Below, piece by piece: positions 12,517 to 34,202 of a stretch of 64,000 nucleotides of DNA. The translations under genes and the position numbers were made by a program. Position 1 is the stretch's first letter, and the number at the start of each line of letters is the position of its first letter. This DNA comes from a bacterium (GTDB taxonomy: Bacteria; Zixibacteria; MSB-5A5; GN15; FEB-12), in assembly GCA_043811375.1 (NCBI GenBank), contig JBDRNJ010000031.1, positions 1-64,000 of the forward strand, in the 5' to 3' direction. Below the pieces are notes generated by a model. The model did no database searches, was not told the DNA's origin, and saw only the letters and a program-made list of their open reading frames with translations.

Positions 12517-12648
12517 TTGCGACGTATTATGCCAACGTGGTGACTCTAATCTTTCCCGTACGCTCCGATTGCGTGCCAATGCGAACCAACACGCCTCGGG
12601 ACGCGCTCGCAAGCTCGCGTGGGCAATCCACAAAAAACTATTTTTCAC

Positions 12649-12677
12649 TTGACATATATCCGCAACGGATATAGTAT
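12649..12677 (+). promoter_or_regulatory. sigma-70 promoter with embedded palindromic operator (probable PadR autoregulation, likely leaderless mRNA)
   Basis: TTGACA-17-TAGTAT; TATATCCG-caa-CGGATATA inverted repeat 12655-12673; ATG at 12684, 6 nt after the -10 box. Confidence 0.7.
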
Positions 12678-12683
12678 CTGATC

Positions 12684-13800: not shown

Positions 13801-13876
13801 AACCGACGGCTTGAGTGGCGGTTTTAGTAAGCCAAGTGCATAAAATGCTCTTGCCTGCGCTTTAGCGCAGACCGCA

Positions 13877-14221
13877 TTATCGCTGCCAGAGGCCGTGGTG
13901 GATGCCCCCCTGGATGTAGATGGCGAACGTACCGTGGCCGGGGATCTCCAAGGGTGGGTGGGCGACCTCGCCGCCGGCCTCCACCGCCGCAGCGACGGCC
14001 GCTTCTATGTCGTCCACCAGCCAGTAGGGCCGCACCACTGGCTCCTCCGCCTCGTGCATGGGCGCTCGTACGCCAACAAGCCCGCCTCCCGGCAGCGCGG
14101 CCGTCCGTGCGTTGCCGAGCCCGGCGTCCGGCTCACCGAACTGCGCCCCGTTCGCTCTGGCGTACGCGGCGCACACCGCGTCGACCTCCTTGGTCACGAT
14201 TTCAAGGTAGTGGATCTGCAT
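13877..14221 (-). CDS. VOC/glyoxalase family protein
   Basis: YLEIVT..PYWLVDDIEAAV..GGEV..IPGHGTFA; GGAGG RBS. Confidence 0.8.
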   Translation of the reverse strand: MQIHYLEIVTKEVDAVCAAYARANGAQFGEPDAGLGNARTAALPGGGLVGVRAPMHEAEEPVVRPYWLVDDIEAAVAAAVEAGGEVAHPPLEIPGHGTFAIYIQGGIHHGLWQR

Positions 14222-14398
14222 GTTTCGTTCACCTCCAGTTAGCGCGCTACGCCATCTTATTCCATTCGGACCGACGTTGCGTCACCGCATTCGTTGGGTT
14301 TTAGACGAATCAGGTCATGATTCAACTCAAATATCAGCCTGAAGAATATACGTGGACTCTTGGGGGAAACACAGACAATTATAGACTAGCTTAGTCTA

Positions 14399-14503
14399 TG
14401 GCGGGGTGGACCTCACTCTCCCAAAACTCTCATTGAATTAGTGTTTGAAGTGAAAATGGGTTATTCGACGGCAAACGGAACGCGTTGGAAGACAATCAGA
14501 TAG
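14399..14503 (+). repeat. Junction C: att-like site encoding tail WRGGPHSPKTLIELVFEVKMGYSTANGTRWKTIR*
   Basis: Gap-free diverged direct repeat of 12412-12516 with synonymous changes. Confidence 0.75.
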
Positions 14504-14535
14504 ATTCTATAGCAATCTACAATTGGTTGGCTCGA

Positions 14536-14566
14536 CAAAAGTCCGGGTGAGATTTCGCTCACCCGG
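14536..14566 (-). terminator. Intrinsic terminator after the czcA-like gene
   Basis: CCGGGTGAG-N6-CTCACCCGG stem, T-run on the minus strand. Confidence 0.65.
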
Positions 14567-14579
14567 CATTCTTATACAG

Positions 14580-17500: not shown

Positions 17501-17678
17501 CCTCCGGAGCCATCCCATGGGCTTCCGTAAGAATCGTTACGGTTGGCGCTGTAAGGTCCGGGAATACATCGATAGGCATGTTTAGGGTGACTATCGTCCC
17601 CAGTATCAATAGGCCTGCTGCGGCAACCAGAACAATTAACCGGTTGTGTAAGCTGGCTTGCATGAGTTTGTCTAGCAT
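14580..17678 (-). CDS. CusA/CzcA family heavy-metal RND efflux permease
   Basis: 1032 aa; IDVFPDL, GILVDDGIIYVENV, RLSPILMT motifs. Confidence 0.92.
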   Translation of the reverse strand: MLDKLMQASLHNRLIVLVAAAGLLILGTIVTLNMPIDVFPDLTAPTVTILTEAHGMAPEEVEKLVTFPIETVVNGASSVRRVRSNSIQGLSTIWVEFDWGVDIYIARQIVNEKIQIVGNALPEGVDQPMMAPITSIMGEIMLVGLTADSTSPMELRTLADFAVARRIQSVPGVSQVLVYGGETQQYQVQVDPYKVAARGLTLDHVLKAVAESNINATGGVFVESGQEFLIRGLGRIQNIEDLKKTVITVENRIPVLIQDVAEVTVASAFKLGTASINNENGALLIIAKQPDANTLLLTEQILTRLEQLRPSLPSDVVMHTEIFKQSDFIEIAIENVTQSLKYGAILVTLVLFAFLMNFRTTVISVLAIPLSLVTAFLTLKVMGLSVNTMTLGGMAIAVGILVDDGIIYVENVYRRIRENAALLESDRRPFMRVVEAASSEIRGPMATATPIVSVVFVPLFFLSGVEGRMLIPLGAAYVVSVLASLLVAITVTPVLSSILLRKVGAGKHQESWLVRQLKYLYEPFLRYFLKHRGLIIGASLVLTIAAMATMPFLGRSFLPEFNEGTFNISMATVPGTSLEQSDQLGSMVEKILLSHDAVISTARRTGRTELDEHSLGSHAHEMEVQIDLSNISKTQLLEELRSQLSIVQGTNITIGQPISHRIDHMLSGTRAAIAVKLFGPDLYGLRQYAEEIKQEMEEVDGLVDIFVDQQTDVPQVRVQANREKMALYGLRPTDMDEMIDVAFLGVTTSQVYEGDQRFDLKVQYAPEHRGDLEAIKRSLIDVPTGGAIPLEVVADITVDRGPNYVSRENVQRKIVIQANVAERDLHGAVQEISQLIDDNVDLPKGYFVEMGGQFESEREATRTVTLFSIVSIVAILVLLYLLFGNFRHPILVMVNLPLALIGGILAILLTDGIMSIASLVGFITLFGIAVRNGIVMLSHYNFLIDREGKPIMEAVIQGSMERLSPILMTALTTGLALLPLAIAADKPGSEIQAPMAIVILGGLISATFLNLVVVPALFIKWGRKQPTSAAAQ

Positions 17679-17708
17679 TGCTTCACCTCTTTTTCGCCAT
17701 TTCTCGTC

Positions 17709-19238
17709 TTAATGTGCATGCCCATGTCCGATTTTGGCCGAAGTGGATGCGAGCTTGACATGATAACCGCCGGTCGTTACGACACGTTCGCCCGGCTCCA
17801 AGCCGTCAAGAATAGCTACATATCCCGCATAGTGCGGTCCTCTGCTGACTATTCTTTTTGTGAATGACTCCCCATCAGCCTGGACAAACACGACAGACAT
17901 GCCATTATCGTCGTAGAGGGCAGATGTGGGAACTGCGGTCGAAATGCTTCCTTCGCTGGAATACAATTCCACAGGAGAGGTTTCATTGATCCTCAAATAA
18001 TCATTCGTATTGCTCACTTCCAGGAGCACGGGAATGGTGCGCGTGGCCGGATCGAGGGCACCCCCGGTGGTGAGAACACGCATATCAGAGTTCGGGATGG
18101 CCCATCCTCCGGGCAGACCATCGGTCTTCACAAACGCTCCGACCGGACTTCCCAATTGATAGAAGTCTCTCTCATACACATTCACCTGTAACCACACTGT
18201 GGCGGGGTCTACGATGGACATCAGCTTGTCGCCAGAGCGAACTCGCTGTCCGGGACGAGCCTGCCACTCGACGATCTTTCCAGATATGGGTGCCTTAAGA
18301 GTTAGAGTGCCGTTTTTGCCACCGCTCGAAAGGGCCTCAAAGCCCGCTTTCATCGCCAAGTAATCGTCTCGAACGAGCTCAAACTCCCGTTCAGAGATAG
18401 CCTCGCGATCTTTGAGACGTTGCGCCCTCTCATAATCACGTTTCGCTTGCTCATACGCCAGATGCGAGGAGGCATATCCTGTGCCTTGTAATGGTGGTGT
18501 GATCGTAACCACGACGTCACCTCGTTTGACCAATGATCCCGGTAGCGCCAATTGGCTACCGTTACCCACATGCAAGATTCCATCGACAGGTGAAACTATC
18601 TCAACGTAGGAGTCGGGGCTGGGTAGCACTTCACCAATCGCCCACACCGATCGCTTGATCTCGCGGGTTTCAACCTCGCTAGTGGCAAAAGGAATTTTCC
18701 ACTGTTGCTCCATGAGGAAGCTTATCCCTCCACCAGTCTCACCCTCTTCCTGCGCAGGTATAGCGTCAATGGATGAATACACCTCAAAACCATCTATAAC
18801 GAACGAGTCGCGCGCGATTGGTCCCTCGTAAGTAAGATTGAGTCTGAGACTCTCGACATCCTTAAGTTCAACGGTTGGCGTGAAAATGCCTTCTCGAAGC
18901 AGATCAGTTTCCACTATTTCGAGCACGGATCGTGTTTCATTCATGAATGTTAGGGTGACTTTGCCTTCTCTGACAGGCTGAAAACCTTCAAGAATAGTAA
19001 GGTGAATAATAAACTTGCTCGGCTGGTTTGCCACCAGGAGAGGGTATTCCATGAACAATCCCATTTGGTCCGTAAATTCTGTCACCGAAACCGAGGGAGC
19101 CTCACCGTTATTCCCCTGGACGGCGGTTTCTGAGTTGTTCTGATCCGTCCTCCCTTCAGCAGGCTCACTACTTCCACTGGCAAAAGCCTGAGTTGCAAAG
19201 GCTAAAAGGAACAGAGCGATATATGCTGTAATCTTCAT
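17709..19238 (-). CDS. RND efflux periplasmic adaptor subunit (CzcB/CusB-like)
   Basis: Signal peptide, APISGKI, DPATRT, GLEPGERVVT, GHGHAH C-terminus. Confidence 0.88.
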   Translation of the reverse strand: MKITAYIALFLLAFATQAFASGSSEPAEGRTDQNNSETAVQGNNGEAPSVSVTEFTDQMGLFMEYPLLVANQPSKFIIHLTILEGFQPVREGKVTLTFMNETRSVLEIVETDLLREGIFTPTVELKDVESLRLNLTYEGPIARDSFVIDGFEVYSSIDAIPAQEEGETGGGISFLMEQQWKIPFATSEVETREIKRSVWAIGEVLPSPDSYVEIVSPVDGILHVGNGSQLALPGSLVKRGDVVVTITPPLQGTGYASSHLAYEQAKRDYERAQRLKDREAISEREFELVRDDYLAMKAGFEALSSGGKNGTLTLKAPISGKIVEWQARPGQRVRSGDKLMSIVDPATVWLQVNVYERDFYQLGSPVGAFVKTDGLPGGWAIPNSDMRVLTTGGALDPATRTIPVLLEVSNTNDYLRINETSPVELYSSEGSISTAVPTSALYDDNGMSVVFVQADGESFTKRIVSRGPHYAGYVAILDGLEPGERVVTTGGYHVKLASTSAKIGHGHAH

Positions 19239-19247
19239 CGTGTAATC

Positions 19248-20480
19248 CTATTCTTCAAAGTTCACGAGAGTCTCACCCGTGATTGTTTCCAATTGAAAAA
19301 GGTTCAGGTAGAATTGAGTCAACTGCCCGTAGTAGTGCTCAAGGCCGGCCACCTCTATTTGAATTGCGTTTAGGAGCTCATTAAGGGTCAACCAGCCTTC
19401 TTCATAGGAATACAAGAGATTGTTGAACTCCTCCGAATCCTCAAGGAAGTGTGGTGAAGCTAGTGCAAGAGATCCCTGCGAACCGGCAATCGATTCTGTA
19501 AGCGCCTGCACTTGACCAATGGCCTGAGTGCGGTTAAGTTGCATCTCGGTCCGAGCAATATCGCTCTCGATCCGGTACTTACGTGCCGTCGAACCGTTGC
19601 GATTGAAGAGCGGTAGGCTTAGTGAAACACCCGCCACATATCCGTCCACGTCCGGATCAATCTTCTTAAGTCCCGCATACACGTTGAGAGCCGGTATGAA
19701 CTTCCCCTTTTCAGCAGATGCGCGCTTGCGAAACGACTCTACCAAGAGCGACCTGGACATATAATCTGGCTGAGATTCTACCACCGCAGTGTAGTGCTCG
19801 ACCGGCTTCAAGTCGATCAATCCGAAACCGACCGGCGTGGCCAGTGTGACCACGTCATCGGGACCCAATCCCACATTGGCTCGCCAGAATGCTGAGAGCT
19901 CTTTTCTCTCCTGCAGAGCTGATTGGTGACTCGCGTTGAGAGATATTATCGCCATCTGGATGAGGTGTTCTTCTGCACCTGATAGATGCCCCTCGGAGTG
20001 TCTTGAGGTTGCCACATGTGAGGCATCCGAAAGGGCTTCTTTAAACCGCTCTAATCGCGAAAGATACTCATCAAGGAGTTGTAAGGCTACGTACCCGGAC
20101 TTCAACGTAGCCAAATGTGTTCGCCTGCTCTGCTCTTTCGTCAATTCAGCCGATTTGACGCGATCTTTCCAACTTGACCGCTTCTTTGAGTAGGCCCACG
20201 GTACCTCGACCTGTTTCCCAATTGTGATTTGGTATTCTTTGGCCTGGTCGACATCCTCACGATCATATGCGATTACTGGATTTGACCATTGCAGGTCTTC
20301 GTCTCGTTCGGCAAGAACCCTTTCGAACTCCTGCCCAATGATCTGGGCACGCGGGCTGTATTCCTGCGCGTGATTGTCCAGATCAGAAAATCTGATTGTC
20401 TTGGTCTCCGCCTGGGCGACTGAGATGAGAACACTCAGTATCAGCCCAGCGCGAAGAATCCATGATGCTCTGTCAAGCAT
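19248..20480 (-). CDS. TolC/CzcC family outer membrane efflux protein
   Basis: Signal peptide, GVSLSLPLFNRN, YEEG motif, operon position. Confidence 0.85.
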   Translation of the reverse strand: MLDRASWILRAGLILSVLISVAQAETKTIRFSDLDNHAQEYSPRAQIIGQEFERVLAERDEDLQWSNPVIAYDREDVDQAKEYQITIGKQVEVPWAYSKKRSSWKDRVKSAELTKEQSRRTHLATLKSGYVALQLLDEYLSRLERFKEALSDASHVATSRHSEGHLSGAEEHLIQMAIISLNASHQSALQERKELSAFWRANVGLGPDDVVTLATPVGFGLIDLKPVEHYTAVVESQPDYMSRSLLVESFRKRASAEKGKFIPALNVYAGLKKIDPDVDGYVAGVSLSLPLFNRNGSTARKYRIESDIARTEMQLNRTQAIGQVQALTESIAGSQGSLALASPHFLEDSEEFNNLLYSYEEGWLTLNELLNAIQIEVAGLEHYYGQLTQFYLNLFQLETITGETLVNFEE

Positions 20481-20535
20481 ACACGTTATCCTTGTTTAAG
20501 AATATTGATTGTTTTGTTTAGAAAAAGACTTAGGA

Positions 20536-20967
20536 TCAGGTCAGCTTAGGCGGACCACGACAGACGAATGTGTCTATGGAAACCGATTCTGGAAGCGAGT
20601 CTCCGTCGCACACGCTTGCTGAAGACCTTTGGCCGACATCGGAACCGTCGACTACTTCGCCACATACACCCAATACATTGACTGGTAATGAGGTGTTTCT
20701 ATCATACGAACGGGTTCTATGCCAGTAGTCGATACTTTGGTCGAATGTATGGTGATGATGCCCGTCCTCGTGATGATCCTCAATAGCGTCCGGATCTACA
20801 TCAACCGGGTGGAGACTTATCTCTATTGGGAATCCTTGGTCGTCGTGCGAATGGTGGAAATGGACATACGGATAGACTTGGCTGAAGTAAACCAATAAGA
20901 GCACCAAAGCCAGCTTTGGCCATCCGTAGCGCTTGTTTACGTTTGGCGAACTATCCATAGAAGGCAA
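20536..20967 (-). CDS. His-rich small protein with N-terminal hydrophobic segment and C-terminal RGPP motif (CzcI/DUF2946-like leader)
   Basis: LALVLLLVYF, HFHHSH, HHEDGHHHH, ...CRGPPKLT*; start may be ATG 20958. Confidence 0.65.
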   Translation of the reverse strand: MPSMDSSPNVNKRYGWPKLALVLLLVYFSQVYPYVHFHHSHDDQGFPIEISLHPVDVDPDAIEDHHEDGHHHHTFDQSIDYWHRTRSYDRNTSLPVNVLGVCGEVVDGSDVGQRSSASVCDGDSLPESVSIDTFVCRGPPKLT

Positions 20968-21114
20968 ATGTAGTCAAGTTTCTCAAATAGTCAAACAGAA
21001 TCCTACTCGTTATAAGGTTTGTAGCTCCCGTATGTGTCATATGTTCCAACATATTAGTTCGCACATAGTGAATTTGACCTTTTGAGTACCTTGACCATCT
21101 GGTATTATTGGTTC

Positions 21115-22182
21115 ATGGCTACTTCAGGTACTAAGACACGTGGTTCAGGTGCGTATGTAGTCTCGCTCGCTCTCGTCTCGGCAGCCTTGTTTGGGGCTGC
21201 CACCCCGGCAAGCAAGGCGGTGCTTGGAAACCTCACGGCATTCCAGTTAGCGGGATTACTTTACCTCGGTGCGGCCTTGGGGGTCCTAACTGTCATGATT
21301 CGAAAGCGGTCTTGGCGCCCGCCGTGGGCGATGACAGCCAAGAACCAACGAAATCTAATCGGAGCCGTCTTTTTCGGCGGCCTCCTCGGACCGGTGCTTC
21401 TACTTTTTGGCTTGCAAATGGCTTCAGCGACCTCCGTATCTATGTGGCTGAACCTCGAAATAGTTGCGACGGCGGTTCTGGGGAGGATGTTCTTTCACGA
21501 TCACTTAGGGCGTTACGGCTGGTTGGGCGTAGCAGGCATTGTGGCCACCGGAGCTTTGCTCAGTGTCGGAGAAGGTTTGGCTGGTCTTTGGGCTGGCCTT
21601 TTGGTTACGGCAGCTTGTACCTGCTGGGGGTTGGACAACCATTTTACTTCCCTCATCGACGGCATCACGCCCTCTCAAAGCACCTTCTGGAAAGGGCTTG
21701 TGGCAGGCTCAGTCAACCTGATATTAGGCCTCATTCTGCACTCTTACGATGCTTCTGTGACGATCACGGTGGGTGCGCTTGTTATCGGAGTGTTCTCGTA
21801 CGGTGCCAGCATTACACTGTACATCACCGCCGCTCAGGGAATGGGAGCCACTCGCGCACAGATGTTCTTCGCCAGTGCTCCATTCTTCGGAGTTGCTCTG
21901 TCGGCGATTGCTTTGGGGGAATCAATAACTGCTCTTCAATTGACCTCTGGCGTCTTGTTGGCCATATCACTGGCCGCTCTCTTTCGAGACAGGCACCATC
22001 ATGGGCATGTACATGACCCGATGGAGCATGAACACGCGCACCGTCATGATGACGAGCATCACGATCACGCTCATCCGGAACTCGCGTCGGGGACGCGTAA
22101 CTCTCACTGGCACGAGCATAATGTGGTCGAGCACGCCCACCCCCATTGGCCCGACCTTCACCACCGCCATCGGCACAGCTAA
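21115..22182 (+). CDS. DMT/EamA family transporter with His-rich C-terminal tail
   Basis: About 10 TM helices in two EamA repeats; HHHGHVH...HPHWPDLHHRHRHS. Confidence 0.85.
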   Translation: MATSGTKTRGSGAYVVSLALVSAALFGAATPASKAVLGNLTAFQLAGLLYLGAALGVLTVMIRKRSWRPPWAMTAKNQRNLIGAVFFGGLLGPVLLLFGLQMASATSVSMWLNLEIVATAVLGRMFFHDHLGRYGWLGVAGIVATGALLSVGEGLAGLWAGLLVTAACTCWGLDNHFTSLIDGITPSQSTFWKGLVAGSVNLILGLILHSYDASVTITVGALVIGVFSYGASITLYITAAQGMGATRAQMFFASAPFFGVALSAIALGESITALQLTSGVLLAISLAALFRDRHHHGHVHDPMEHEHAHRHDDEHHDHAHPELASGTRNSHWHEHNVVEHAHPHWPDLHHRHRHS

Positions 22183-22288
22183 ATCTTATTGGGACTTCAT
22201 AACTGGTTTGGCTGGGGGGAAAGTATGGTGAGAGTGAGGTTTGGTTCTGACACTGCTGTAAGCTATTCTCTGACAATAGAATATAAAA

Positions 22289-22345
22289 TGGCGGGGGCTA
22301 CGAGACGATTTCCGCAACTGGGTAATCGAGAATGTGGCTGCCTAG
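22289..22345 (+). repeat. Junction D: left att end of the autonomous island, encoding tail WRGLRDDFRNWVIENVAA*
   Basis: Repeat of 10956-11009; TGGC aligns with AAGC at the tRNA 3' end. Confidence 0.78.
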
Positions 22346-22351
22346 AGACTG

Positions 22352-24160
22352 TTAGGCTCTCTCCAACTGCAGGAAATGCACGTAACCTGAAGCACCGCCA
22401 ACGAGGATCGTGACGCCATCAGGGCAGACCGCACAGCAGTACAGACTTTCATCAATATCGAAATTCATCAGAATCTGCCCCGACTCCAGATCCCAAACCT
22501 TCAGGGTCTGATCAGAAGACCCGGAGATGACACGGCCGCCGTCGGGCGTCACCGCCAGGGCATTGACCCAACCCGTGTGCCCCTCCAGGGTGCGGATGAC
22601 TTGCCCCGACTCCAGATCCCAAACCTTCAGGGTATGGTCCCAAGACCCGGAGATGACACGGCCGCCGTCGGGCGTCACCGCCAGGGCATTGACCCCACCC
22701 GTGTGCCCCCTTAGACTCATTAACTCACTGCCCCCTGCCTGCGTGATGCTGGGGTGCAATAGGCGTAACCAAGCCTGTTTGGCCTCTGACGCCTGATCAC
22801 GAAGGTTAACGATGTCCGCTTCCCTGCTTGAAAAAAGACGCGCATAGAGCTGTTCGGCCAGTTGATCCTTGTCCGTCATGAGAATGTGAGCTGCCAGCCG
22901 CAGGGCCGATTGTATAAGGCGCAAAACAGAATCATCCGGGAAGAAGTCGTAGTCGGATATCAGGCTCTGTAAATCCGTGCTGTTCAGCTTTGCTTGCAGC
23001 CATTTGAAATTTTTCAATAAGCGCCGCAGGGTCTCTGCACGATTAGCGCCTTGGAGATGGTAGCCGACCCATTGACAGGCGTATTGGTTGGGAAGGTTGT
23101 AATGATCTTTCCAGGAATCCGCCAGTTTGCCGTGCACAGAGTGCCCATCCGCCATCTGTGAGATAAGATAGGTTCGAATAACATCGTGCGGGCGAAGAGT
23201 TTTCTTATTCAGGTCAAGATTCTGCAGCAAAGAAAGGTTGGCCAGCCGCAACGCTAAGTCTTCTGTGTCAAGCTCGTCCAATCCCCATAATTGACTCACT
23301 ACATCAAGCGGTACGTTTTCATCCTCAGGAAAGATACCCAGGTGCAGGTAGCGTTCACGTCCCTTGGCAGGCAACAGCTCCAAACTGGCACCGACAGTCA
23401 GATCGATTGCATCATTACGATGTTCAGGATTGTGGCGGTTGAAAGCATCAATCCCCCGCTTGTCGAGCGCCTTGTTGAGGTACGCCACCGCCTCGTCCGC
23501 GCTGACGCCTCGTACAATGCGTTCTTTCAGAGCACTACCAGCCAGGGAAAGTAAGAGCGGCCACTCTCCCATACGAGCTGACAACTCACGGTACGGCTGC
23601 AAATCATGGGGACGGCTTTTAAGCTGACCTACCAACATCTCCGTGGCCTCGTCTGAAGTCATCTCATCAACCGAGACCAGTGGCATTCCGGTAACCAGAT
23701 CGCTCCGCCGAGTCGTGACCATCACAGTGCAACCGCCTACCGCTCGCCTGAGACACTCCAACTCCCTGCGGTTCCAGATATCGTCCAGCACAACCAGGCA
23801 ATCCTTACCAGCCACCTTACCAGCCACGGTATTTATGGCATCCTCTTCGTCCACAAAGGGGGGACGCTCACCGGTCAGCGCCGCGTACAACTTCGCGAGT
23901 GTACCCACTACATCCGGCTTCTCACCAAGCGTGACCTAGAGAATACCATCATTGTAAGCAGTGATAACTTCTTCATTATGACAAAGTGCTGCCGCCAGGG
24001 TAGTCTTGCCGAATCCACCGGCACCATACAGAGCAGTTGTGATGACAACCGGATTCTCCCGATTTTTGTCCAATACTAAGCTAAGAAGCTGGTCGTACTC
24101 ATTTGGACGCTCCACAAAACCCTCCGGTGGCTCCGGAGCCATATAGGGTACAAGTCCCAC
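22352..24160 (-). pseudogene. Apaf-1-like NB-ARC/WD40 (STAND/NLR) protein interrupted by an in-frame TAG
   Basis: GAGGFGKT P-loop in 23936-24160; GIL*VTLG (TAG at 23936-23938 where W is expected); same frame continues with LVVLDDIW, helical domain and WD40 repeats. Confidence 0.8.
22476..22709. repeat. Near-identical 126-bp-period tandem repeat encoding WD40 units
   Basis: TGCCCCGACTCCAGATCCCAAACCTTCAGGGT at 22476 and 22602. Confidence 0.9.
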
Positions 24161-24386
24161 TCCGAAGACATATCAAGCTGTGCAGTGGTTATCAATAGGG
24201 CGCATTTACGGCCTTGCCAACTACCACCCCCGCACAGTATATTCTGGATCACAGTCAGGGATGGAGCGTACGGTCGATTATGGCACAGGTCACAATAGAG
24301 AACCCAATTCTAAACTCGCCGTTTGGTGAACCGAGTCGTTGTGTTGTATTCGCTAAGAACGTGACGTTCTGGGGAGTCGCATAGGT

Positions 24387-27300
24387 ATGCCTAAACACCC
24401 CGTCGAGACTTACCTCAGTGAGCTTCATGAAATTCGTGCCACCGGCGGTGGCTCGGCTGAAATATCTTACTATGGTGCTTTGGAAGCACTGCTAAACGAG
24501 GTGGGAAGGAAGCTTAAGCCCAAAGTTCGTTGCGTTCATAATCTGGTAAATACCGGTGCAGGGTTCCCCGACTTTGGGTTATATACGGCAAATCAATTCC
24601 AGAAAGCCAAGAATGCCGAACCCTTACCGGGTCAGCTGCCGGAACGCGGCGTGATTGAGGTCAAACCCACCGACGATGATTCCTGGCTCACGGCAAAGGG
24701 GACACAGGTCACCAAATACTGGGGGCGTTACGGACAGGTACTGGTCACCAACTACCGCGATTTCGTCTTTATCGGTCGAGATGAAAGAGACAAACCAGTG
24801 AAGCTGGAGACATTTCGCCTGGCCGACACGGAGAACGCCTTCTGGGCAGCTACAACTCACCCGCGAAAGACGGCACAGGATAAGGGTGACAGGCTGATTG
24901 AGTTCTTGTGTCGCATCATGCAGCACGCTGCTGCGATTACTGATCCGGAGGACTTAGCCTGGTTCCTGGCGTCGTACGCGCGTGAAGCTAAGGCACGGAT
25001 TGAAGCCGTGAGCGATCTGCCTGGTCTTGCTGCTTTGCGCGGAGGGCTGGAAGAGTCACTTGGCTTGAGATTCGAGGGCGAGGAAGGTGAACACTTCTTT
25101 CGTGCAACATTGATTCAAACCCTTTTCTACGGCGTCTTTTCATCCTGGGTCCTGTGGGCACGCGATAACGGCACCAAAGAAACTGACCGGTTCAACTGGC
25201 ATGAGGCGGCATGGAATCTCCATGTTCCTATGATTGCCGGCTTATTTCAGCAGATTGCCACACCGAATAAACTTAAGCCGCTGGGGTTGGATGAGATCCT
25301 CGATTGGACCGGCATGGCTCTTAACCGTATAGTACGAGACAAGTTCTTTGAGAAGTTTGAGGAGGAGCAGGCAGTCCAGTATTTCTACGAGCCGTTCTTG
25401 AAAGCCTACGATCCTGATCTGAGAAAAAAACTCGGCGTCTGGTACACGCCACAGGAGATTGTCAAGTACCAGGTTGCACGTGTGGATACTGTGCTCCGAG
25501 AGGAATTAGACATCGAAGACGGCCTGGCTGACCCCAGCGTCTATGTGCTCGATCCCTGCTGCGGTACGGGGGCGTATTTGGTGGAGGTGCTGCGCAGCAT
25601 TCACCGGACACTGAAGGAAAAAGGTGCTGATGCTTTGACCGCCCAGCAGCTCAAAAAGGCGGCAATGGAACGTGTCTTCGGATTTGAGATTCTCCCCGCG
25701 CCTTTTGTTGTGTCACACCTTCAACTGGGTCTTATGCTCAGGACTCTCGGAGCGCCCCTTTCTGAGAATGGTAAAGAGCGCGTCGGTGTCTATCTCACAA
25801 ACGCCCTGACAGGATGGGAGCCGCCCAAAAGCCCCAAGGACCAATTGGCCTTCCCGGAACTGCAGGAGGAACTCGAAGAGTCTGGAAAAGTCAAACGTGA
25901 AGTCCCGATCTTGGTAGTCCTCGGTAACCCACCCTACAACGCCTTTGCCGGAACAAGCCCTGCAGAGGAACGGGGCTTGGTCGAGTCTTTCAAGGATGGA
26001 CTCACTAAACCGGTCAAGGATGGCGGCTGGGGGATAAAGAAGTTCAACCTCGATGACCTCTATGTCCGCTTCTTCCGCATCGCCGAGCGGCGGATTGTCA
26101 AGAGTGGCATGGGAGTAGTCAGCTATATCTCGAACTTCTCTTACCTTGGCGACCCATCATTCGTGGTCATGCGCCAACGATTCCTTGATGAATTTGACAA
26201 GCTCTGGTTCGATTCCATGAACGGTGATAGTCGGGAGACTGGCAAGAAGACTCCTGACGGGAAACCCGATCCCAGCGTCTTCTCCACAGAGCAGAGCCGC
26301 GTAGGCATTCGAGTAGGCACGGCGATCTGCACAATGGTTCGCAGGCGCAAGCGTTCAAGAATGCCCACGGTTCGCTTCCGCCACTTTTGGGGAGCGACAA
26401 AGCGAGCAGATGTCCTGAACAGCTTGAAGGTTAAGAAGTTCAATAAGGACTACGACATCTCCGGTCCTAATACAGGAAACAGGTTTTCGTTTCGACCCCA
26501 GGTTGTCGACGCTCATTATCTGTCATGGCCAAAGCTTACTGCGCTGTGTGGCGAAGCACCCAGTAACGGCTTGATGGAGAAACGAGGCGGTAGCCTCATT
26601 GATGTGGAGAGACAGGCTCTTGAAAGGCGTGTGACGGCTTACTTCGATGCGAACCTTGATTGGGAGGGGTACAGGTCACTCGGCTACGGGCTTGAGAAAC
26701 CGAAGGCAGGTATTGATGATCCCGAGAAACTGAGGAAGAAAGCAATAGCAGCAGAACCATATAAGCCACAACATTTGGTCCGGTATTCGGTACGCCCCTT
26801 CGAAATACAGTGGGCTTATTACTGCGCCGTCCCAGGCGTTTGGAATCGTGCGCGACCGAACTACAAGGAGCAATGCTGGGAGGGAAACACATTCATCATA
26901 ACGCGTCCTGCCGGAGTTGCGAGTGTTGAAGGAACTCCGCTGTTTTTCACAAGCACCATCGGTGACAACGACTCCCTGCGGGGACATGCCTACTACTTCC
27001 CGGTGCAATTTCGCCCGGCCACCAGGAAACGAAGGGCAGACAGCGCCTCTGGCAGCTTGGCTCTCGAAATCAAGCCGCAACGGGCCGTGGCCGCCAACCT
27101 CTCGAACAACGCACGCGCATACCTGAAATCCTTCGGCATCTCCAACCCGGACATGAACGCAGAGACAGCGAGCCTCATCTGGATGCACGCGCTGGCCATC
27201 GGATACTCGCCTGCCTACCTTTCCGAAAATGCCGATGGCATCCGCCAGGACTGGCCGAGAATCCCGCTTCCTGACTCGAAGAAAGCACTCCTGGCCTCTG

Positions 27301-27881
27301 CCAAGCTCGGCAACCGGGTCGCAGCCTTGCTCGATACAGAGAGGGGCTTGTCCGGCGTCACATCTGGTAGGCTTCGCGCAGAACTAAAGACAATGGGGAT
27401 CGTCTCGCGTGTTGGTGGAGGTAGCTTGACTGCGGAGGAAGGCGGCTTCGGCTTGACCGCCGGTTGGGGACACGCTGGAAAAGCTGGCGTCACGATGCCC
27501 GGCAGGGGGAAGATCGAGGAGCGGGCCTATACGGGTGAGGAGCTTGAAGCGTTTAACGCTGGGGCAAAGGGACTCGGTCTTACATTGAAGCAAGTGCTTG
27601 AGCATCTTGGGAAGAACACGCTCGATGTTTATCTGAACGACATGGCGTACTGGAAGAACATTCCAGTCAACGTGTGGGACTACCATATAGGTGGCTACCA
27701 GGTCATCAAGAAGTGGCTCAGCTACCGTGAGAAAAGTCTTCTTGGACGCTCCCTGAAAATGGAAGAAGTCGAATATGTCACCGACACGACACGTCGCATC
27801 GCAGCGATCATCTTGTTGCAGCCAACCCTTGACACCAACTATGAAGCAGTGAAATCGGATACATACGTGTGGAGCGACTGA
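24387..27881 (+). CDS. Single-polypeptide restriction-modification enzyme (type IIG / type ISP-like N6-adenine methyltransferase)
   Basis: N-terminal PD-(D/E)xK-like FPDF...IEVK; DPCCGTG motif I; GNPPY motif IV; C-terminal type ISP-like specificity region (WDYHIGGYQVIKKWLSYR); no helicase motifs seen. Confidence 0.85.
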   Translation: MPKHPVETYLSELHEIRATGGGSAEISYYGALEALLNEVGRKLKPKVRCVHNLVNTGAGFPDFGLYTANQFQKAKNAEPLPGQLPERGVIEVKPTDDDSWLTAKGTQVTKYWGRYGQVLVTNYRDFVFIGRDERDKPVKLETFRLADTENAFWAATTHPRKTAQDKGDRLIEFLCRIMQHAAAITDPEDLAWFLASYAREAKARIEAVSDLPGLAALRGGLEESLGLRFEGEEGEHFFRATLIQTLFYGVFSSWVLWARDNGTKETDRFNWHEAAWNLHVPMIAGLFQQIATPNKLKPLGLDEILDWTGMALNRIVRDKFFEKFEEEQAVQYFYEPFLKAYDPDLRKKLGVWYTPQEIVKYQVARVDTVLREELDIEDGLADPSVYVLDPCCGTGAYLVEVLRSIHRTLKEKGADALTAQQLKKAAMERVFGFEILPAPFVVSHLQLGLMLRTLGAPLSENGKERVGVYLTNALTGWEPPKSPKDQLAFPELQEELEESGKVKREVPILVVLGNPPYNAFAGTSPAEERGLVESFKDGLTKPVKDGGWGIKKFNLDDLYVRFFRIAERRIVKSGMGVVSYISNFSYLGDPSFVVMRQRFLDEFDKLWFDSMNGDSRETGKKTPDGKPDPSVFSTEQSRVGIRVGTAICTMVRRRKRSRMPTVRFRHFWGATKRADVLNSLKVKKFNKDYDISGPNTGNRFSFRPQVVDAHYLSWPKLTALCGEAPSNGLMEKRGGSLIDVERQALERRVTAYFDANLDWEGYRSLGYGLEKPKAGIDDPEKLRKKAIAAEPYKPQHLVRYSVRPFEIQWAYYCAVPGVWNRARPNYKEQCWEGNTFIITRPAGVASVEGTPLFFTSTIGDNDSLRGHAYYFPVQFRPATRKRRADSASGSLALEIKPQRAVAANLSNNARAYLKSFGISNPDMNAETASLIWMHALAIGYSPAYLSENADGIRQDWPRIPLPDSKKALLASAKLGNRVAALLDTERGLSGVTSGRLRAELKTMGIVSRVGGGSLTAEEGGFGLTAGWGHAGKAGVTMPGRGKIEERAYTGEELEAFNAGAKGLGLTLKQVLEHLGKNTLDVYLNDMAYWKNIPVNVWDYHIGGYQVIKKWLSYREKSLLGRSLKMEEVEYVTDTTRRIAAIILLQPTLDTNYEAVKSDTYVWSD

Positions 27882-28107
27882 TTGAATGATGCCAAACTCG
27901 ATACCTCCGTTCATGAGCGCGCGTACTAAGGTTCTTCTTGTTTGAGACGAGCTACCGCCTGAGGGTGGTTTCTGGAAACTCAGTGGGTCAAAACTACTGG
28001 TGAGTTTAGGATTATGACTGCTTCTCCGCTCAGAATCAGATTGAGTGCTCGATTTGTGATTGTCAACCAACTGACAACCTGCTATTCCAGAGGTAGGAGG
28101 TAAGCGT

Positions 28108-28887
28108 ATGGGACATATCCGACTCGACCGACTACCGAAGACCAGGCGTTGGAAAGAGGTTATTGAGTTACTTCACCAGGGCAGGTCCATTGACGAGTTG
28201 GCGCGGGCAACATTCTACGCCGCTCAAACGGGTTTGTCTCGAATACCCATTGATGCCGGCTTCACTCAGACCCTTACCGTCATATTTGGTTTCATTGACG
28301 CTCTCCAATCCAAAACTCCAGTTACCAGTTTGCGTCAAAAAGGCTTTGCCGTGCCGACGGATGCTTCACTATTTGACTATGTCGGTAGCTTCAAGGCGCG
28401 AGCCGAGGACGCAGCAGCGGCTGTCCACGCGCGATCCGATATCGCTGAAATCGCACGGGATAGTTTCTCGCAAGTTCTGCTGAAATACGCCGGTTCATCG
28501 TTGCAGACTCTCTTCGGCGTCGATTCAACTGATGCGAAACAAGCTTTGCGATCCAACCTCAAGGGGAAGCCACTCGGCTCGACTATGCACGAGTTCTTCG
28601 CCACCTTCACTCAAAGGTATCTCAATTACTACTTGGGTCGCGAATTGCCTAATCACGTTGGGACCGGCAAGGCGTTTTCAAATGTGGATGGGCATTCGGA
28701 GTTCAACAAGGCGTTTGACCTCCATGTCAGGCAGACAGTGCGGATAGCCGACGAGTTCACTCCGGGTTGGTTTGGCAAGGCACGATATGAGGAGAGGCTC
28801 TCGCATAAGGACGTGTCTCGCTTTGCCCATACAGCCTTCAAGAAGATTCGTAGCGAATTTCGGCGAGGTGGAGAGGCTAATGGATGA
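28108..28887 (+). CDS. Hypothetical helical protein coupled to a QueC-like gene (starts MGHIRL)
   Basis: AGGAGG RBS; 259 aa; 8-nt overlap with the next gene. Confidence 0.8.
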   Translation: MGHIRLDRLPKTRRWKEVIELLHQGRSIDELARATFYAAQTGLSRIPIDAGFTQTLTVIFGFIDALQSKTPVTSLRQKGFAVPTDASLFDYVGSFKARAEDAAAAVHARSDIAEIARDSFSQVLLKYAGSSLQTLFGVDSTDAKQALRSNLKGKPLGSTMHEFFATFTQRYLNYYLGRELPNHVGTGKAFSNVDGHSEFNKAFDLHVRQTVRIADEFTPGWFGKARYEERLSHKDVSRFAHTAFKKIRSEFRRGGEANG

Positions 28888-30712
28888 ACCGGTGGACATC
28901 TGGTGCGGTCCGGAGTTACTGCCGAGAAGTTTCAGTCGAAGGCGCACAGTCCTCCTCAACACAGTCCCCGATTTCCACAACGTCAACCTCCGGATTAAGA
29001 ATATCACAAAGAAGCTCGCCAAGAATCTGTCTCCGGTAGTCCTCGATCTCCTCGAAATCGCCAGCTACGTTTATGCGGCGGATCAATCGGTCCGTCGCGG
29101 GGGTAGGACGCTACGGGGAGACGGCAAAGACTGGCGCAGGGAGTTTGTGTATCACATTCCGGTTCGGCGTCTTGACCTGTGGCAAAGCGAAGAAACATCT
29201 GAAGCTCTTGTCAATCTACTGACCTTCCTTTCAGATGATTTCTATGAGTTCAAGTTTCGAGAGTTGACCAGGGAAGTTGATCCTCAGACATACATTGATT
29301 TTGACGAAGGCAGACCGTGGTTTGATGCCAACAAGGTCATGCTGTTTTCAGGTGGACTCGACTCCCTGGCCGGTCTATGTGAGAGCGTGAAGGACGACAA
29401 TCAGAGAATCGTTCTTGTGAGTCATCGCCCGGCACCGCAAACAGACCATTTGCAGAGAAAACTACTGGCTGATTTCACAGGGTTGACCGAAAGCCAGAAG
29501 CGTCTGTTGCATGTGCCGGTCTGGATAAACAAAGCTGAGAAACTCACCAAGGACACGCACCAGCGAACCAGATCATTCCTGTATGCTTCATTGGCAGCCT
29601 CGCTGGCTCATATGCACAATCTGTCAAAGGTGTACTTCTACGAGAACGGGATTACCAGTTCGAACCTGGCTATTGCGCCATCGGCTCTTGGAGCTCGCAC
29701 CAGCAGAACCACGCATCCGCAAGTTCTCAAGGGCTTTAGCAGACTGCTGTCAGTAATCTTCAATCAAGATTTCTCTGTCGACAATCCGTTCTTCTGGAAG
29801 ACGAAGGCGGATATCGTCAAGATCATAAGGGATTGCGGAGCGAAGGATTTGATTCGTCACACGAGCAGTTGTAGTCATGTTAGATCAGGCAACCCATTGG
29901 GCAATCACTGCGGTGTTTGTTCCCAGTGCATAGGCAGACGGTTGGCGATTCTGCACAACTCCGCGGAAGCCGATGATCCGGAAGAAATGTATCGGGTCAG
30001 GATGCCTCTGGACCCAATAACCAAGGACATTGAGCGAGCCATGTTGGAGCTAATCATCAAAGCGGCGCGGGACTTCGAGAGTGCCGATGTGGTCAGTTTC
30101 TTCGGCCGTTACGGGCAGGCGATGGCGATTGTGACTGCGCTGGACATGAAATCGGACCCGGCCGCAAACAGGCTCTTGGAGCTGCACAAGCGCCACGGTC
30201 AGCAAGTGTGCCAGGTACTCCAGGACATCGTTGAAACCCACGGAGGACTGGTGGCGCGTGGAGGTGTCCCGGCGAACTCCATGCTAAGCATGATAGCTGA
30301 GCAACCAACCAAGACGCCCGCTGTGCCAAAAGGCTGTATGCCCATTTCCTTGCCGGAGGATACTGTCTGGGAAGACATCACCGTTGAAATTGTCGGCAAC
30401 GATGCGGCCAAGATATTCATCGGCGATCAGTATCATGCAGTAACGGCATTTGACATGGGATTCAAGGATCACAAGAAGAACTTACCCAACCGCATTTGGG
30501 ATCTTCTTTTTGACTTTGCTGAAGCTGGCGGGACCCTGGCATGGAGTTCGGAAGAAAGAACGGGGCACTGGTACCATAAGGACTTCCAAAGGCTCAGAAA
30601 CACCCTCAAAGCGTTCTTCGGTCTGACTGAGGACCCTCTGGCTCCATATGACAAAAAAGTAGGCTACCAAACGCGCTTCAGTATTCTTTACGACCGCACT
30701 GCAAAAACCTGA
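28880..30712 (+). CDS. QueC (7-cyano-7-deazaguanine synthase)-like / QatC-like PP-loop enzyme with N- and C-terminal extensions
   Basis: LFSGGLDS, QRTRSFLY, SRTTHP, NPFFWKTKADIV, SCSH...HCGVCSQC; ATG 28880 after GGAGAGG. Confidence 0.82.
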   Translation: MDEPVDIWCGPELLPRSFSRRRTVLLNTVPDFHNVNLRIKNITKKLAKNLSPVVLDLLEIASYVYAADQSVRRGGRTLRGDGKDWRREFVYHIPVRRLDLWQSEETSEALVNLLTFLSDDFYEFKFRELTREVDPQTYIDFDEGRPWFDANKVMLFSGGLDSLAGLCESVKDDNQRIVLVSHRPAPQTDHLQRKLLADFTGLTESQKRLLHVPVWINKAEKLTKDTHQRTRSFLYASLAASLAHMHNLSKVYFYENGITSSNLAIAPSALGARTSRTTHPQVLKGFSRLLSVIFNQDFSVDNPFFWKTKADIVKIIRDCGAKDLIRHTSSCSHVRSGNPLGNHCGVCSQCIGRRLAILHNSAEADDPEEMYRVRMPLDPITKDIERAMLELIIKAARDFESADVVSFFGRYGQAMAIVTALDMKSDPAANRLLELHKRHGQQVCQVLQDIVETHGGLVARGGVPANSMLSMIAEQPTKTPAVPKGCMPISLPEDTVWEDITVEIVGNDAAKIFIGDQYHAVTAFDMGFKDHKKNLPNRIWDLLFDFAEAGGTLAWSSEERTGHWYHKDFQRLRNTLKAFFGLTEDPLAPYDKKVGYQTRFSILYDRTAKT

Positions 30713-31217: not shown

Positions 31218-32327
31218 GTGAAAACAGTGCAAGTGAATAGCAAAAATGAGAAGATCAAGAGGAAGTACTTCAGGTGGTTGAGGGAGGCAAACGGCCTGTC
31301 GGAGCTAACTGTCTGTGCTGTAGAGAAAGCGATCTGGCTGTACGAGGACTTCACCAATCACGGTGACTTCGCGGGATTCAACCAGAGCAAAGCTGTCAGG
31401 CTGAAGAAATGGCTGCTGAGCAGAACCTACAGAGGAAAGCCAGTCTCGATCACCACAGTATATCACTACCTGCGTCATCTTAAACGGTTTTTTGTCTGGT
31501 TGTCTGGCCAACCTGGCTACAAGTCGAGGATAAGTTTAGACAGCGTCTCGTACTTGTCGCTGGAGAAAAAGAAAGTACGAGAGGCAACCGCACCTAAGCG
31601 AGTGAAGTATCCTTCCTTGGAGTATGTCCGGAATCTTGCTGATTCTATCGATGTGAGAAACGAGATTGATCAGAGAGATCGAGCGCTGATTGCATTCCTG
31701 CTTCTGAGCGGAATGAGAGACAAGGCCGTCAGTACTCTCCCCATCGGTTGTTTTGATACCCAGACGCTGGAGATTCAGCAGGACCCGGTAGCAGGCGTTG
31801 ACACCAAGTTCGGGAAATCCTTCATAAGTGTTTTGTTCCGCTTTGATGACAAGCTTGTTGAGTATGTGATCAACTGGGTCAAGTACTTGACAGAGACGAA
31901 GCTGTTCGCCTCCACTGATCCACTGTTTCCGCGGAGCAGAGTGGAACAAGTAGAGGGTGGTTTGACTTTCATCTCGCGGCAGGTTGAGGGAGTGTACTGG
32001 AAAGGGGCTGGTAGCATCAGACAGATTCTGAAGGTTCGCTCGGCAAAAGCAGGCCTGAATTATTATCACCCTCACTCGTATCGCCATACGGCTGTGAGTC
32101 TGGCTATGAGGTACTGCCGTAACGCTGAGGAAATCAAGGCAGTAAGTCAGAACTTCGGTCATGACTACATCGGTACTACGATGGTCACCTACGGGACACT
32201 GGACGACTTCAGAGTAGAGGAGATCATTAGAGGAATGGATTTTTCAGCCGGTTGCTGCAAGGTGAACCAGAATCAGGTGATCGAGGATGTGCTGAGACAG
32301 CTTGAAAAACTGAAAAAGAACTCTTGA
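31218..32327 (+). CDS. Tyrosine recombinase/integrase
   Basis: RDRALI..SGMR, TKFGK, HPHSYRH, NFGH..MVTY catalytic pattern. Confidence 0.88.
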   Translation: MKTVQVNSKNEKIKRKYFRWLREANGLSELTVCAVEKAIWLYEDFTNHGDFAGFNQSKAVRLKKWLLSRTYRGKPVSITTVYHYLRHLKRFFVWLSGQPGYKSRISLDSVSYLSLEKKKVREATAPKRVKYPSLEYVRNLADSIDVRNEIDQRDRALIAFLLLSGMRDKAVSTLPIGCFDTQTLEIQQDPVAGVDTKFGKSFISVLFRFDDKLVEYVINWVKYLTETKLFASTDPLFPRSRVEQVEGGLTFISRQVEGVYWKGAGSIRQILKVRSAKAGLNYYHPHSYRHTAVSLAMRYCRNAEEIKAVSQNFGHDYIGTTMVTYGTLDDFRVEEIIRGMDFSAGCCKVNQNQVIEDVLRQLEKLKKNS

Positions 32328-32352
32328 CATAGGCGACATATGACGATATATT
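32324..32352 (+). promoter_or_regulatory. sigma-70 promoter for the HTH-serine recombinase operon
   Basis: TTGACA-17-TATATT. Confidence 0.55.
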
Positions 32353-32362
32353 GGGGTGTACA

Positions 32363-32557
32363 ATGGCTAAGAAGGATTTGATAACAAAGCTCGAAGAGTT
32401 TCGGTTGGAGAACAGGATCACTCAGACCGAACTGGCGGATATGATGGGAGTGGCATTCGTAACCGTCAATCGGTGGCTGAACGGTCATCAGTACCCGAAC
32501 CGGATTCAGGAGTACCACATCGAGAAGCTCCTATCTTCTAAGGGACGCAAGCGATGA
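32363..32557 (+). CDS. XRE-family helix-turn-helix protein
   Basis: ITQTELADMMGVAFVTVNRWLNG; ATGA overlap with the recombinase. Confidence 0.85.
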   Translation: MAKKDLITKLEEFRLENRITQTELADMMGVAFVTVNRWLNGHQYPNRIQEYHIEKLLSSKGRKR

Positions 32558-34104
32558 AGTGCGTGATCTATGCCAGGGTCTCGTCGAAAGAGCAGGAGCG
32601 CGAGGGCTTTTCAATTCCGTCACAACTGAAACTCGTGCGAAAATACGCCCGTGAGAACAACCTGGAAGTGGTGCAGGAGTACATCGACGTGGAAACAGCC
32701 AAGGCCACGGGGCGAACTGGATTCGGCGAAATGTTGGCATACATCAAGGCACCTATGCACGAGTGTCGCGTAATTCTGGTGGAGAAGACAGACCGCCTCT
32801 ACCGCAATATCAGGGACTGGGTCACTTTGGACGAGTATAATGTTGAGGTTCACTTCGTCAAAGAGAACTTCATTCTTTCAAAGGATTCAAAGTCGTCAGA
32901 GAAATTTCTTCACGGCATCAAGGTCCTGATGGCCAAGAACTACATCGACAACCTCTCGGAGGAAGTGAAGAAGGGAATGCGTGAGAAAGCCGAGCAGGGT
33001 GAATGGCCCAACAAAGCACCCTTGGGCTATCTGAACAACAAGGAAACCCACCTGCTTGAGGTTGATCCGGACCGTGCTCCAATAATCGCACAGCTTTTTG
33101 AATTGTACTCTACTGGACAGCATTCCATCACAACTTTACACCAAAGAGCAAAAGAGCTGGGCCTTAAGTACAGAAACTCGAACCGGTATTGCAGCCGAAG
33201 CAACATCGAGAGAGTTCTGAAGAACCCGATATATGCCGGTCGATTCGTATGGAAAGGCACCACCTTCCGGGGAATCCACGCACCGATAATATCTGAGACG
33301 CTGTTCGAAGAGGTCCGGGCGCGGTTCCGTAGGAGCGGCAAATCCAAGGCCAACACTCGGAAGTTTGCTTTCAAGGGACTGCTCACTTGTGGCTACTGTG
33401 GCTGTGCTATCACTGCCGAACTCAAGAAAGGGAAGTACGTCTACTATCGGTGCACTAACGGCAAGGGTAAGTGCAAGCAGCCGTACGTTCGCGAAGAGAA
33501 GCTTGCTGATACTCTTGCGGAAGTCGTTATTCGAGTGCGTATTAGCTCGTCCCAAGCAGGAGAGATAAGAGAGGCTCTGAGGGCCAGCTTCGAAACAGAA
33601 AAGGGATATCGGACGAAAGAAGTCGCCAGGCTGAAGCGTGAACAGGCGCGACTCCAAGGCCACCTTGATCAGACATACCTGGATAAGATTGAGGGACGAA
33701 TTGACACCGAGTTTTGGAGGAAGACGCACGATAGATGGATCAGTGAGCAGAACTTGGTATCAAGCAGGATGGAGGAATTGACGCGCGCCAACAAGAACTA
33801 CTACGAACAGGGCGTCGATTTCTTAGAACTCGCCCAAGCAGCCCCCTCGTTATACCTTAGCCAGACAATCGACGAAAAAGCCAAGCTGTTGCGTACGCTA
33901 CTTTCGAACTGCACGATGAAGGGGGCAACCCTTTGTCCCACATACAACAAACCCTTCAACTTGGTCGCTGAAGGGGGCGCAGGTGACAAAAAGCTGGGAG
34001 ACTGGGATTCGAACCCAGATTCTGCGGTCCAGAGCCGCATGCCCTGCCATTGGACTATCTCCCAGTACCTTAAGACAAATCGGCGACTGCCGCCAAATTC
34101 TTAG
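32554..34104 (+). CDS. Large serine recombinase (resolvase + recombinase + Zn-ribbon + coiled coil)
   Basis: YARVSS catalytic motif, DRLYR, APLGY, NPIYAG, HAPII, CGYCG..YYRC; last ~37 codons are the antisense of tRNA-Gln and flank. Confidence 0.93.
   Translation: MKCVIYARVSSKEQEREGFSIPSQLKLVRKYARENNLEVVQEYIDVETAKATGRTGFGEMLAYIKAPMHECRVILVEKTDRLYRNIRDWVTLDEYNVEVHFVKENFILSKDSKSSEKFLHGIKVLMAKNYIDNLSEEVKKGMREKAEQGEWPNKAPLGYLNNKETHLLEVDPDRAPIIAQLFELYSTGQHSITTLHQRAKELGLKYRNSNRYCSRSNIERVLKNPIYAGRFVWKGTTFRGIHAPIISETLFEEVRARFRRSGKSKANTRKFAFKGLLTCGYCGCAITAELKKGKYVYYRCTNGKGKCKQPYVREEKLADTLAEVVIRVRISSSQAGEIREALRASFETEKGYRTKEVARLKREQARLQGHLDQTYLDKIEGRIDTEFWRKTHDRWISEQNLVSSRMEELTRANKNYYEQGVDFLELAQAAPSLYLSQTIDEKAKLLRTLLSNCTMKGATLCPTYNKPFNLVAEGGAGDKKLGDWDSNPDSAVQSRMPCHWTISQYLKTNRRLPPNS
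33994..34064 (-). tRNA. tRNA-Gln(CTG), CCA not encoded
   Basis: TGGGAGA/TCTCCCA acceptor stem, TGCGG-CTCTGGA-CCGCA anticodon arm, CTGGG-TTCGAAT-CCCAG T arm. Confidence 0.95.
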
Positions 34105-34202
34105 CCCGGTCCAACCGACATTGTTTAGAGCCGGGGGCAGCGGCCGATTCGACAGGTCGAATATATAATATCCCGAGTCAATGTCAAGCTGCGTGCCATA
34201 AT

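Follow-up and report, generated by a model that had tools for sequence, protein, structure and literature searches.

Described systems

Large serine integrases act at short att sites that have a 2-bp core and little other shared sequence, and for excision they need a directionality factor. In the serine integrases of the streptococcal rumA ICEs the C-terminus and the length of the protein change on integration, and in the cited portion of that work the authors propose a functional difference between the two forms (PMC4701971). The locus considered here is alike in that a large serine integrase has its att site inside its own gene and exchanges its 3' end, but the targets are tRNA 3' ends of ten amino-acid types, whereas the rumA elements use the protein gene rumA; the latter are conjugative, and the cited portion of their description contains no degron (PMC4701971). 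A second precedent is Mx8 IntP, in which attP also lies inside the integrase gene and integration replaces the C-terminus, there with a change in activity (PMC6070905, PMC4701971). IntP, however, is a tyrosine recombinase and not a member of the serine family, it exchanges 112 residues for 13 where here 11 are replaced by 36, and the effect is described, in the parts of those sources cited, as one on activity and not on proteolysis (PMC6070905, PMC4701971). The archaeal SSV1/pTN3 "suicidal" integrases likewise contain the recombination site within the integrase gene, but they are tyrosine enzymes that are split into inactive halves, whereas all domains of the present recombinase lie upstream of the crossover (PMC8371274). 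As in the tRNA islands treated in the Islander work, the island stands at a tRNA gene, leaves the tRNA intact and has counterparts in tandem arrays; those islands duplicate a tRNA fragment, whereas the block shared here is only 2-10 bp (PMC4383910). According to the cited part of the 2014 Islander paper, no serine recombinase is known to use a tRNA gene as its target, a statement that the tRNA-targeting family described below contradicts (PMC4383910).

The recombinase and its target

The window, by which is meant the whole stretch of 64,000 nucleotides that was analysed, carries at 32554..34104 (+ strand) an open reading frame for a 516-aa protein with the domain set of large serine recombinases (LSRs), namely Resolvase (PF00239, aa 4-151), Recombinase (PF07508, aa 172-259) and zinc ribbon (PF13408, aa 273-325). 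The gene runs into tRNA-Gln(CTG) (33993..34064, - strand), the single copy of this anticodon in the assembly. No stop codon precedes the crossover: the GC core of the right junction (33993..33994, +), which is the antisense of the discriminator G and the first C, lies inside codons 480/481, at the same position as in homologs, and 36 further codons (481-516, 33994-34101) continue through the antisense tRNA-Gln and its flank. Translation of the tail matches the peptide that the initial annotation had assigned to the antisense of the tRNA. The integrated form of the protein is thus a 480-aa body, with all three domains (aa 4-325) upstream of the crossover at aa 480, followed by a 36-aa tail that is spelled by the target.

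The family to which the recombinase belongs is large, 6762 of 8000 scored candidates matching at E<=0.001, although not all are of the same subfamily. Those nearest to it bear Zixiibacteriota labels, and the host probably belongs to this phylum. Among 116 loci, an antisense tRNA was found within 100 nt of 88 of 106 LSR 3' ends, and the targets comprise ten amino-acid types (Asn 31, Gln 23, Asp 13, Ser 9 and others 12). The reading frame is open into the tRNA in all 88, with tails of between 2 and 170 codons. When three duplicate loci are removed and the window's own recombinase is added, 86 tRNA-abutting LSRs remain; every one is open into the tRNA and none of the 86 integrated tails ends in Ala-Ala. 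Tails spelled by the target were also seen among 120 protein homologs. The integrated tail is whatever the target spells, and therefore holds no conserved information.

The left end of the island

Five half-site-like arms, all on the + strand, were found in the window. The first (10911..10947) reads GC, 11 nt and then GAC TAT TTT AGA ACT GCA GCG TGA, and in the recombinase frame it encodes the 11-residue tail LAIVDYFRTAA. Behind it lies an Asp-type P' arm with an AC core (10955..11009; junction A), with the tail RGLRDDFRNWIMEKPAA. At 12414..12516 there is a class II P' arm, with a 33-residue tail that has no Ala-Ala end and of a kind that L334/P0101 has in natural fusion with a recombinase of the Asp clade, and a second class II arm at 14401..14503 is 78% identical to it. 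The fifth, at 22291..22345, is again an Asp-type P' arm, with the tail RGLRDDFRNWVIENVAA, and was the left end chosen in the initial annotation. A comparison of the arms suggests that the left end, and hence the cognate P' half-site, is probably 10911, which would give an island of about 23 kb (10911-33994), close to the 23.4 kb in G159.

The att features of the locus are the GC core and a 9-bp block shared between 10911 and the tRNA junction, with which 22291 and 14401 each have 2 bp in common; in seven pairs of left and right ends from relatives the shared block measures 4-10 bp. Starting at the core, 10911 copies 5 nt from the tRNA side, and the P' arm copies 4-8 nt from the GC core in all seven relative pairs, whereas 22291 copies GC only. 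Among 2192 GC sites the 9-bp block is equalled at two others, both of which are without the motif. The DNA upstream of related LSRs was examined in 36 stretches, 30 of which have an LSR, and in a tree of 33 LSRs the window recombinase falls in a clade of nine rows with support of 100/100. A left arm on the same contig could be assigned in three of its eight clade relatives (LAVVDYFRTAG, RAIVDYLRNVA and RAIVDYFRTAA, each followed by a stop), and all three are of the 10911 type; three more of the eight have an arm of this type on another contig, and no match was obtained in the remaining two, whose contigs end 7-8 kb upstream. Arms with the tail motif RGLRD(D/E)FRNW, such as 22291 and junction A, accompany the tRNA-Asp LSRs L321, L328 and L338, which form a separate clade of 13 rows (100/99), and the L334 recombinase to which the 12414/14401 arm type is naturally fused stands in the 13-row tRNA-Asp clade too. 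The arms at 22291, 14401 and junction A resemble those of tRNA-Asp-type elements.

The sequence details given in the initial annotation hold, with TG before the GC at 22291 and 14401, AC at junction A, and a 22291 crossover product that would be a 497-aa protein with a 17-residue tail from 22292-22342. Its choice of 22291 as the partner site is not supported by the clade distribution of the arm types, 10911 being the type of the recombinase's own clade, and junction A, which had been taken for a possibly "locked" site of the island, is better described as an arm of Asp type that stands in a stack with the cognate arm, 44 nt behind it. The rival possibility that the excising unit is 22291-33994, or that any of the five GC/AC junctions serves in a modular excision, with a gain of CCA by the tRNA, draws on the position of 22291 as the arm nearest to the recombinase, with GC core and spacing intact and an in-frame Ala-Ala tail, and on the related motif common to all the arms. 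Given the number of copied nucleotides and the association of such arms with the recombinases of another clade, it is regarded as unlikely.

The empty site (attB) was not seen, as the NifB/NifX-like neighbour had no tRNA within 1.5 kb in the best 30 of 91 matches; because such a gene lies downstream of a 10911-type arm in the genome G097, the NifB/NifX-like gene may itself be older cargo. The inverted symmetry of the att arms amounted to 3-10 matches in 30, in a test of little information.

The CCA end of the tRNA

As noted in the initial annotation, the tRNA-Gln ends G-C-TT and CCA is absent. The accompanying claim that excision would restore an encoded CCA fares less well. The flank of 10911 on the tRNA strand reads G-C-TTTTC, and excision there yields no CCA; if 10911 is the left end the tRNA lacks CCA in both states, and for this reason the CCA switch falls. 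Nor is an encoded CCA the rule in this organism. ARAGORN called 51 host tRNAs, of which 16 end in CCA, but in two of these the letters are the CC of the stem plus the discriminator, so that 14 of 51 encode it and 37 do not. Among relatives, 13 of 16 tRNA-Gln(CTG) genes end G-C without CCA, and two of the three that bear it are LSR junctions at which the TGG is a Trp codon of the recombinase, as it is at 62 of 86 tRNA junctions. The host genome has a gene of the PolyA_pol/CCA-adding family. A difference in CCA between the flanks, with TG in the left and none in the right, was found in two of the seven relative pairs, which counts in favour of excision at 22291 and implies that such a change is possible, yet it is not conserved, and even a real gain at 22291 would be incidental in a host in which most tRNA calls are without CCA. 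The change of CCA on excision is thus probably not real; the function of the tRNA would be unaltered by the island and CCA addition would be needed in either state.

The Ala-Ala ending of the excised-state tail

Whilst the integrated tail is dictated by the target, the tail encoded by the P' arm has a recurrent ending. A metagenome scan with the Asp/Acidobacteria-type motif yielded at least 124 loci with 123 distinct sites, and among the matches listed Ala-Ala precedes the first stop in the LSR frame at 67 of the 110 sites where a stop could be seen, compared with 2 of 110 and 5 of 106 in the other two frames, counts that, like those that follow, include sites related by descent and are not independent. 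The 43 sites without this ending include some chance coding matches, again among the matches listed. At 49 sites in loci from the phylum, the tail ends in Ala-Ala in 26 of 46 cases and in Ala in 39 of 46, against 0/48 and 1/48 in the other frames. Arms of the cognate type were found at 30 sites in 23 of 285 genomes; 22 have short tails, 16 of which end in Ala-Ala, and most of the eight with long tails look like chance coding matches. In the whole genome only 10 of 2219 long reading frames (0.45%) have this ending.

The pattern of variation within the cognate-type tails is informative. In the 17 tails of 11 codons, the GTG, GAC and TAT of the half-site proper are each present 17 times, and this invariance of codons 4-6 as DNA is as expected of a binding site, whereas codons 10 and 11 make use of all four Ala codons and are followed by all three forms of stop. 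The Ala-Ala end is kept, moreover, in tails of 11, 15-17 and 23 residues. Because the Ala codons and the stop vary synonymously and their distance from the crossover floats between 11 and 23 codons, the last two residues look to be under selection at the level of the protein. It might be argued that there is no regulation at all, that the gene merely overlaps its att site and that GCN-GCN-stop reflects a DNA motif or has simply been carried along by descent; the integrated tails are indeed unconstrained, and several arm families are without Ala-Ala, namely class II (12414, 14401 and that of L334) and the arms in L343 and L347. The synonymous variation, the floating distance and the rarity of the ending among the frames of the genome all speak against this explanation, which appears very improbable.

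Recombinase ends naturally fused to such tails were found in L052, where two LSR ends are followed by in-frame Ala-Ala tails, and in L027, with one tail of 23 residues. A profile search returned 11 proteins ending in Ala-Ala among the best 150, against 0 of 47 with tRNA-type ends, a count that is biased since Ala-Ala tails went into the profile. No recombinase was found in the 80 metagenome loci tested (of at least 124) within at most 2.5 kb on each side, nor any LSR within 1.5 kb of 60 arm loci from the phylum, and what ties arm to enzyme is for this reason the evidence of the paired loci and of the fusions. A protein search with the C-terminal region of L052 gave 21 matches, with an Ala-Ala tail in none of the 11 examined, and a loose motif scan of L021-L100 produced mostly chance matches. 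Viral contigs matched the Asp-type pattern 8 times and the cognate-type pattern 9 times; in none of these matches is a recombinase end fused to an arm, most have the look of ordinary coding sequence, and one, L105, resembles a true arm.

A possible stability switch

The Ala-Ala end of the excised tails resembles the host tmRNA tag, GEYNYAMAA, and the host genome has a ClpX zinc-finger gene. In the cited part of an E. coli degron screen, terminal Ala-Ala marks ClpXP degrons and is present in 91% of the top 100, with the consensus [L/F/Y/W]-[L/A/R]-L-A-A, but Ala-Ala alone is insufficient, 39% of the tags ending in it being weak, and short polar residues are disfavoured at position 3 (bioRxiv 10.1101/2024.01.29.576913). 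The end of the cognate tail, F-R-T-A-A, fits this consensus at four of the five places, with Thr at the disfavoured position 3. That recombination adds and removes a ClpXP-type degron on the recombinase, and so constitutes a stability switch, is on the comparative evidence the somewhat more probable interpretation. It is in keeping with the suggestion of the initial annotation that integrated and excised isoforms differ and might control stability, in that the C-termini do differ and the terminal Ala-Ala of the excised tail looks selected.

Under the proposed stability switch, a recombinase that crosses over in its own last codons would have placed the island (10911-33994) at the 3' end of tRNA-Gln(CTG), with the result that the integrated gene ends in antisense-tRNA sequence and the chromosomal recombinase would be untagged. 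Excision would join the 10911 tail to residue 480, and the recombinase made from the circle would carry an ssrA-like ClpXP degron and be short-lived. A short-lived circle integrase would limit immediate re-integration as well as stray or off-target recombination at the many tRNA ends that read G-C, and integration would be tied to the state of the host protease, with stability changed and not catalysis. The stable chromosomal form may be held down by transcriptional control, through the promoter of the HTH-recombinase pair and the convergent promoter of the tRNA.

There is a competing explanation, modelled on Mx8, in which the tail encoded by P' would form a structural helix and alter synapsis or catalysis, the excised isoform integrating and the integrated one behaving differently, as a switch of activity or directionality. 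Many tails retain the D-x-F-R-(N/T) motif, but it sits in the DNA half-site with near-invariant codons, and in the metagenome set it is the search pattern itself. In the AlphaFold model of the natural fusion L052 a helix spans residues 480-492, but with a pLDDT of about 55 and from a thin alignment. The swapped integrase of Mx8 was, according to the cited part of the source, less active (PMC4701971). Set against this, the cognate tail is without the W-containing part yet has retained Ala-Ala, and integrated tails of 2-170 codons are tolerated, so that an activity switch seems rather unlikely.

A wider version of the degron proposal can be put forward only as speculation, its two parts being taken jointly and considered doubtful. 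Serine integrases at tRNA ends across phyla would write and erase their own protease tag, and this alone, without a directionality factor, would bias direction, since the stable chromosomal enzyme would excise and the tagged enzyme of the circle would hardly undo it; in addition, a single tRNA-side recombinase would serve recombinase-less cassettes headed by one or several stacked half-sites, in a manner that is integron-like on serine chemistry.

The recombinase neighbourhood and cargo

A 64-aa XRE HTH_3 gene (32363..32557, +), the stop of which overlaps the recombinase ATG, precedes 21 of 30 related recombinases. Two sigma-70-like promoters are predicted by consensus match alone, each with 11 of 12 matches, one in front of the HTH-recombinase pair (32324..32352, +) and the other in front of the tRNA (34160..34187, -), convergent with the recombinase. 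Given the placing of the HTH gene in an operon behind a strong predicted promoter, a role as autorepressor would be at least as likely as one as directionality factor. The KPF..EG codons near the end of the recombinase double as a terminator-like hairpin with a U-run for the tRNA (33952..33975, -), placed to end its transcript. In 49 of 86 homologs the fold of this stretch surpasses that of almost every synonymous recoding, compared with 23 of 86 for a control 200 nt upstream, from which it follows that the hairpin probably does end the tRNA transcript.

A tyrosine recombinase (31218..32327, +), assigned from Pfam and from the loci of relatives, belongs to a conserved module beside the serine recombinase (window 28108-33993 and L313-L348), in which two recombinases of different chemistry stand side by side; the tyrosine recombinase and the XRE HTH gene precede the recombinase in 21 of 30 relatives, whatever tRNA is targeted, and in 11 of 30 the module has an unnamed 259-aa gene and a QueC/QatC-like gene. 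The cargo (11173..30712) comprises an Fe-S protein, PadR, an RND efflux trio, EamA, WD40/NB-ARC pieces, a type IIG restriction-modification-like enzyme and a QueC/QatC-like pair. Between 14580 and 20480 (-) the RND trio (AcrB-family, HlyD and OEP), a small His-rich protein and a His-tailed EamA transporter probably represent metal efflux. An NB-ARC/APAF1-helical/WD40 gene is in two pieces at 22352-24160 (-) and is adjoined by the type IIG restriction-modification-like gene (24387-27881), a probable defence cargo. Among those island reading frames that were scanned with Pfam, no conjugation family and no phage structural family was detected.

Half-site arrays and other repeats

Arrays of P' half-sites and cargo with no recombinase of their own are found in the window (10911-22345), in L263, L268, L273, L277, L278 and L280, and at G061:C9 and G029:C44, and the interval from an arm to a tRNA in the right orientation is free of LSR matches in 6 of 20 stretches. 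L266 does not count among them, since its tRNA points the wrong way. Such arrays may be either cassettes moved in trans or islands from which the recombinase module has been lost. In the genome G061 five arms stand before one LSR. Half-sites of different clades can be stacked, and of 23 cognate-type arms, the window included, 5 are immediately followed by one of Asp type; examples within tens of bases are 10911-11009 of the window, L358, L359, L365 and L377, and in L268, L277 and L279 arms of other types come after those of Asp type. The window's own genome has four more arms at C64:87410-134900, a related recombinase at tRNA-Arg(TCT) with a stop just short of its 3' end (C6:115704-117212), and related recombinase ends at tRNA-Asp-like junctions (C32:174-1520 and C28:16960-17574). 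Three tRNA-Pro(TGG) calls that share one 3' end fall within 9 kb at C19:38951-47404, which probably reflects a different kind of tandem island array. Other repeats in the window are, at 57606-60861 and 63084-63163, two gene copies (1685-bp period, 89% identity over 300 nt) and an 80-nt element repeated three times, and a short intergenic repeat in direct and inverted copies (43423-43454, 44018-44165 and 49059-49102).

Comparison with known systems

The swap of a C-terminus is already known from the rumA integrases and Mx8, and the removal of a degron from the BPs repressor; the combination with a tRNA-targeting serine integrase was not found in the literature, as far as the cited parts of these sources go. 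The search, from which subscription journals were largely absent and which does not establish absence from print, returned no tRNA-targeting serine integrase with an attP-encoded degron, and the arrangement is not described in PMC12424338 or in the cited parts of PMC12884075, PMC13626063 or PMC6507118. There are practical consequences. Since database proteins of this large family carry tRNA-derived C-termini, integrases mined from genomes are annotated in the integrated form, and their excised form may be unstable in E. coli. A comparison of tails ending in AA and DD would bear directly on the reason for which an integrase gene extends across its own att site, a matter on which, for serine integrases, a proposal was made and, in the cited portion of the rumA ICE paper, left untested (PMC4701971).

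The nearest parallel to the proposed degron is in the mycobacteriophages BPs, Brujita and Charlie, which lose by recombination a C-terminal degradation tag that is present only in the extrachromosomal state (PMC3694055). The present locus has a sequence signature of such a tag. In BPs attP is inside the repressor gene, while here the crossover is in the recombinase gene and an intact HTH gene lies 1.4 kb upstream; unlike BPs-type immunity, there is no evident phage switch (PMC3694055). In the cited account of BPs it is the repressor whose tag is switched, Int having a tag in either state, whereas here the recombinase would toggle its own tag (PMC3694055), and if this is true the locus represents a minimal self-regulating switch in which one recombination event alters the half-life of its own enzyme.
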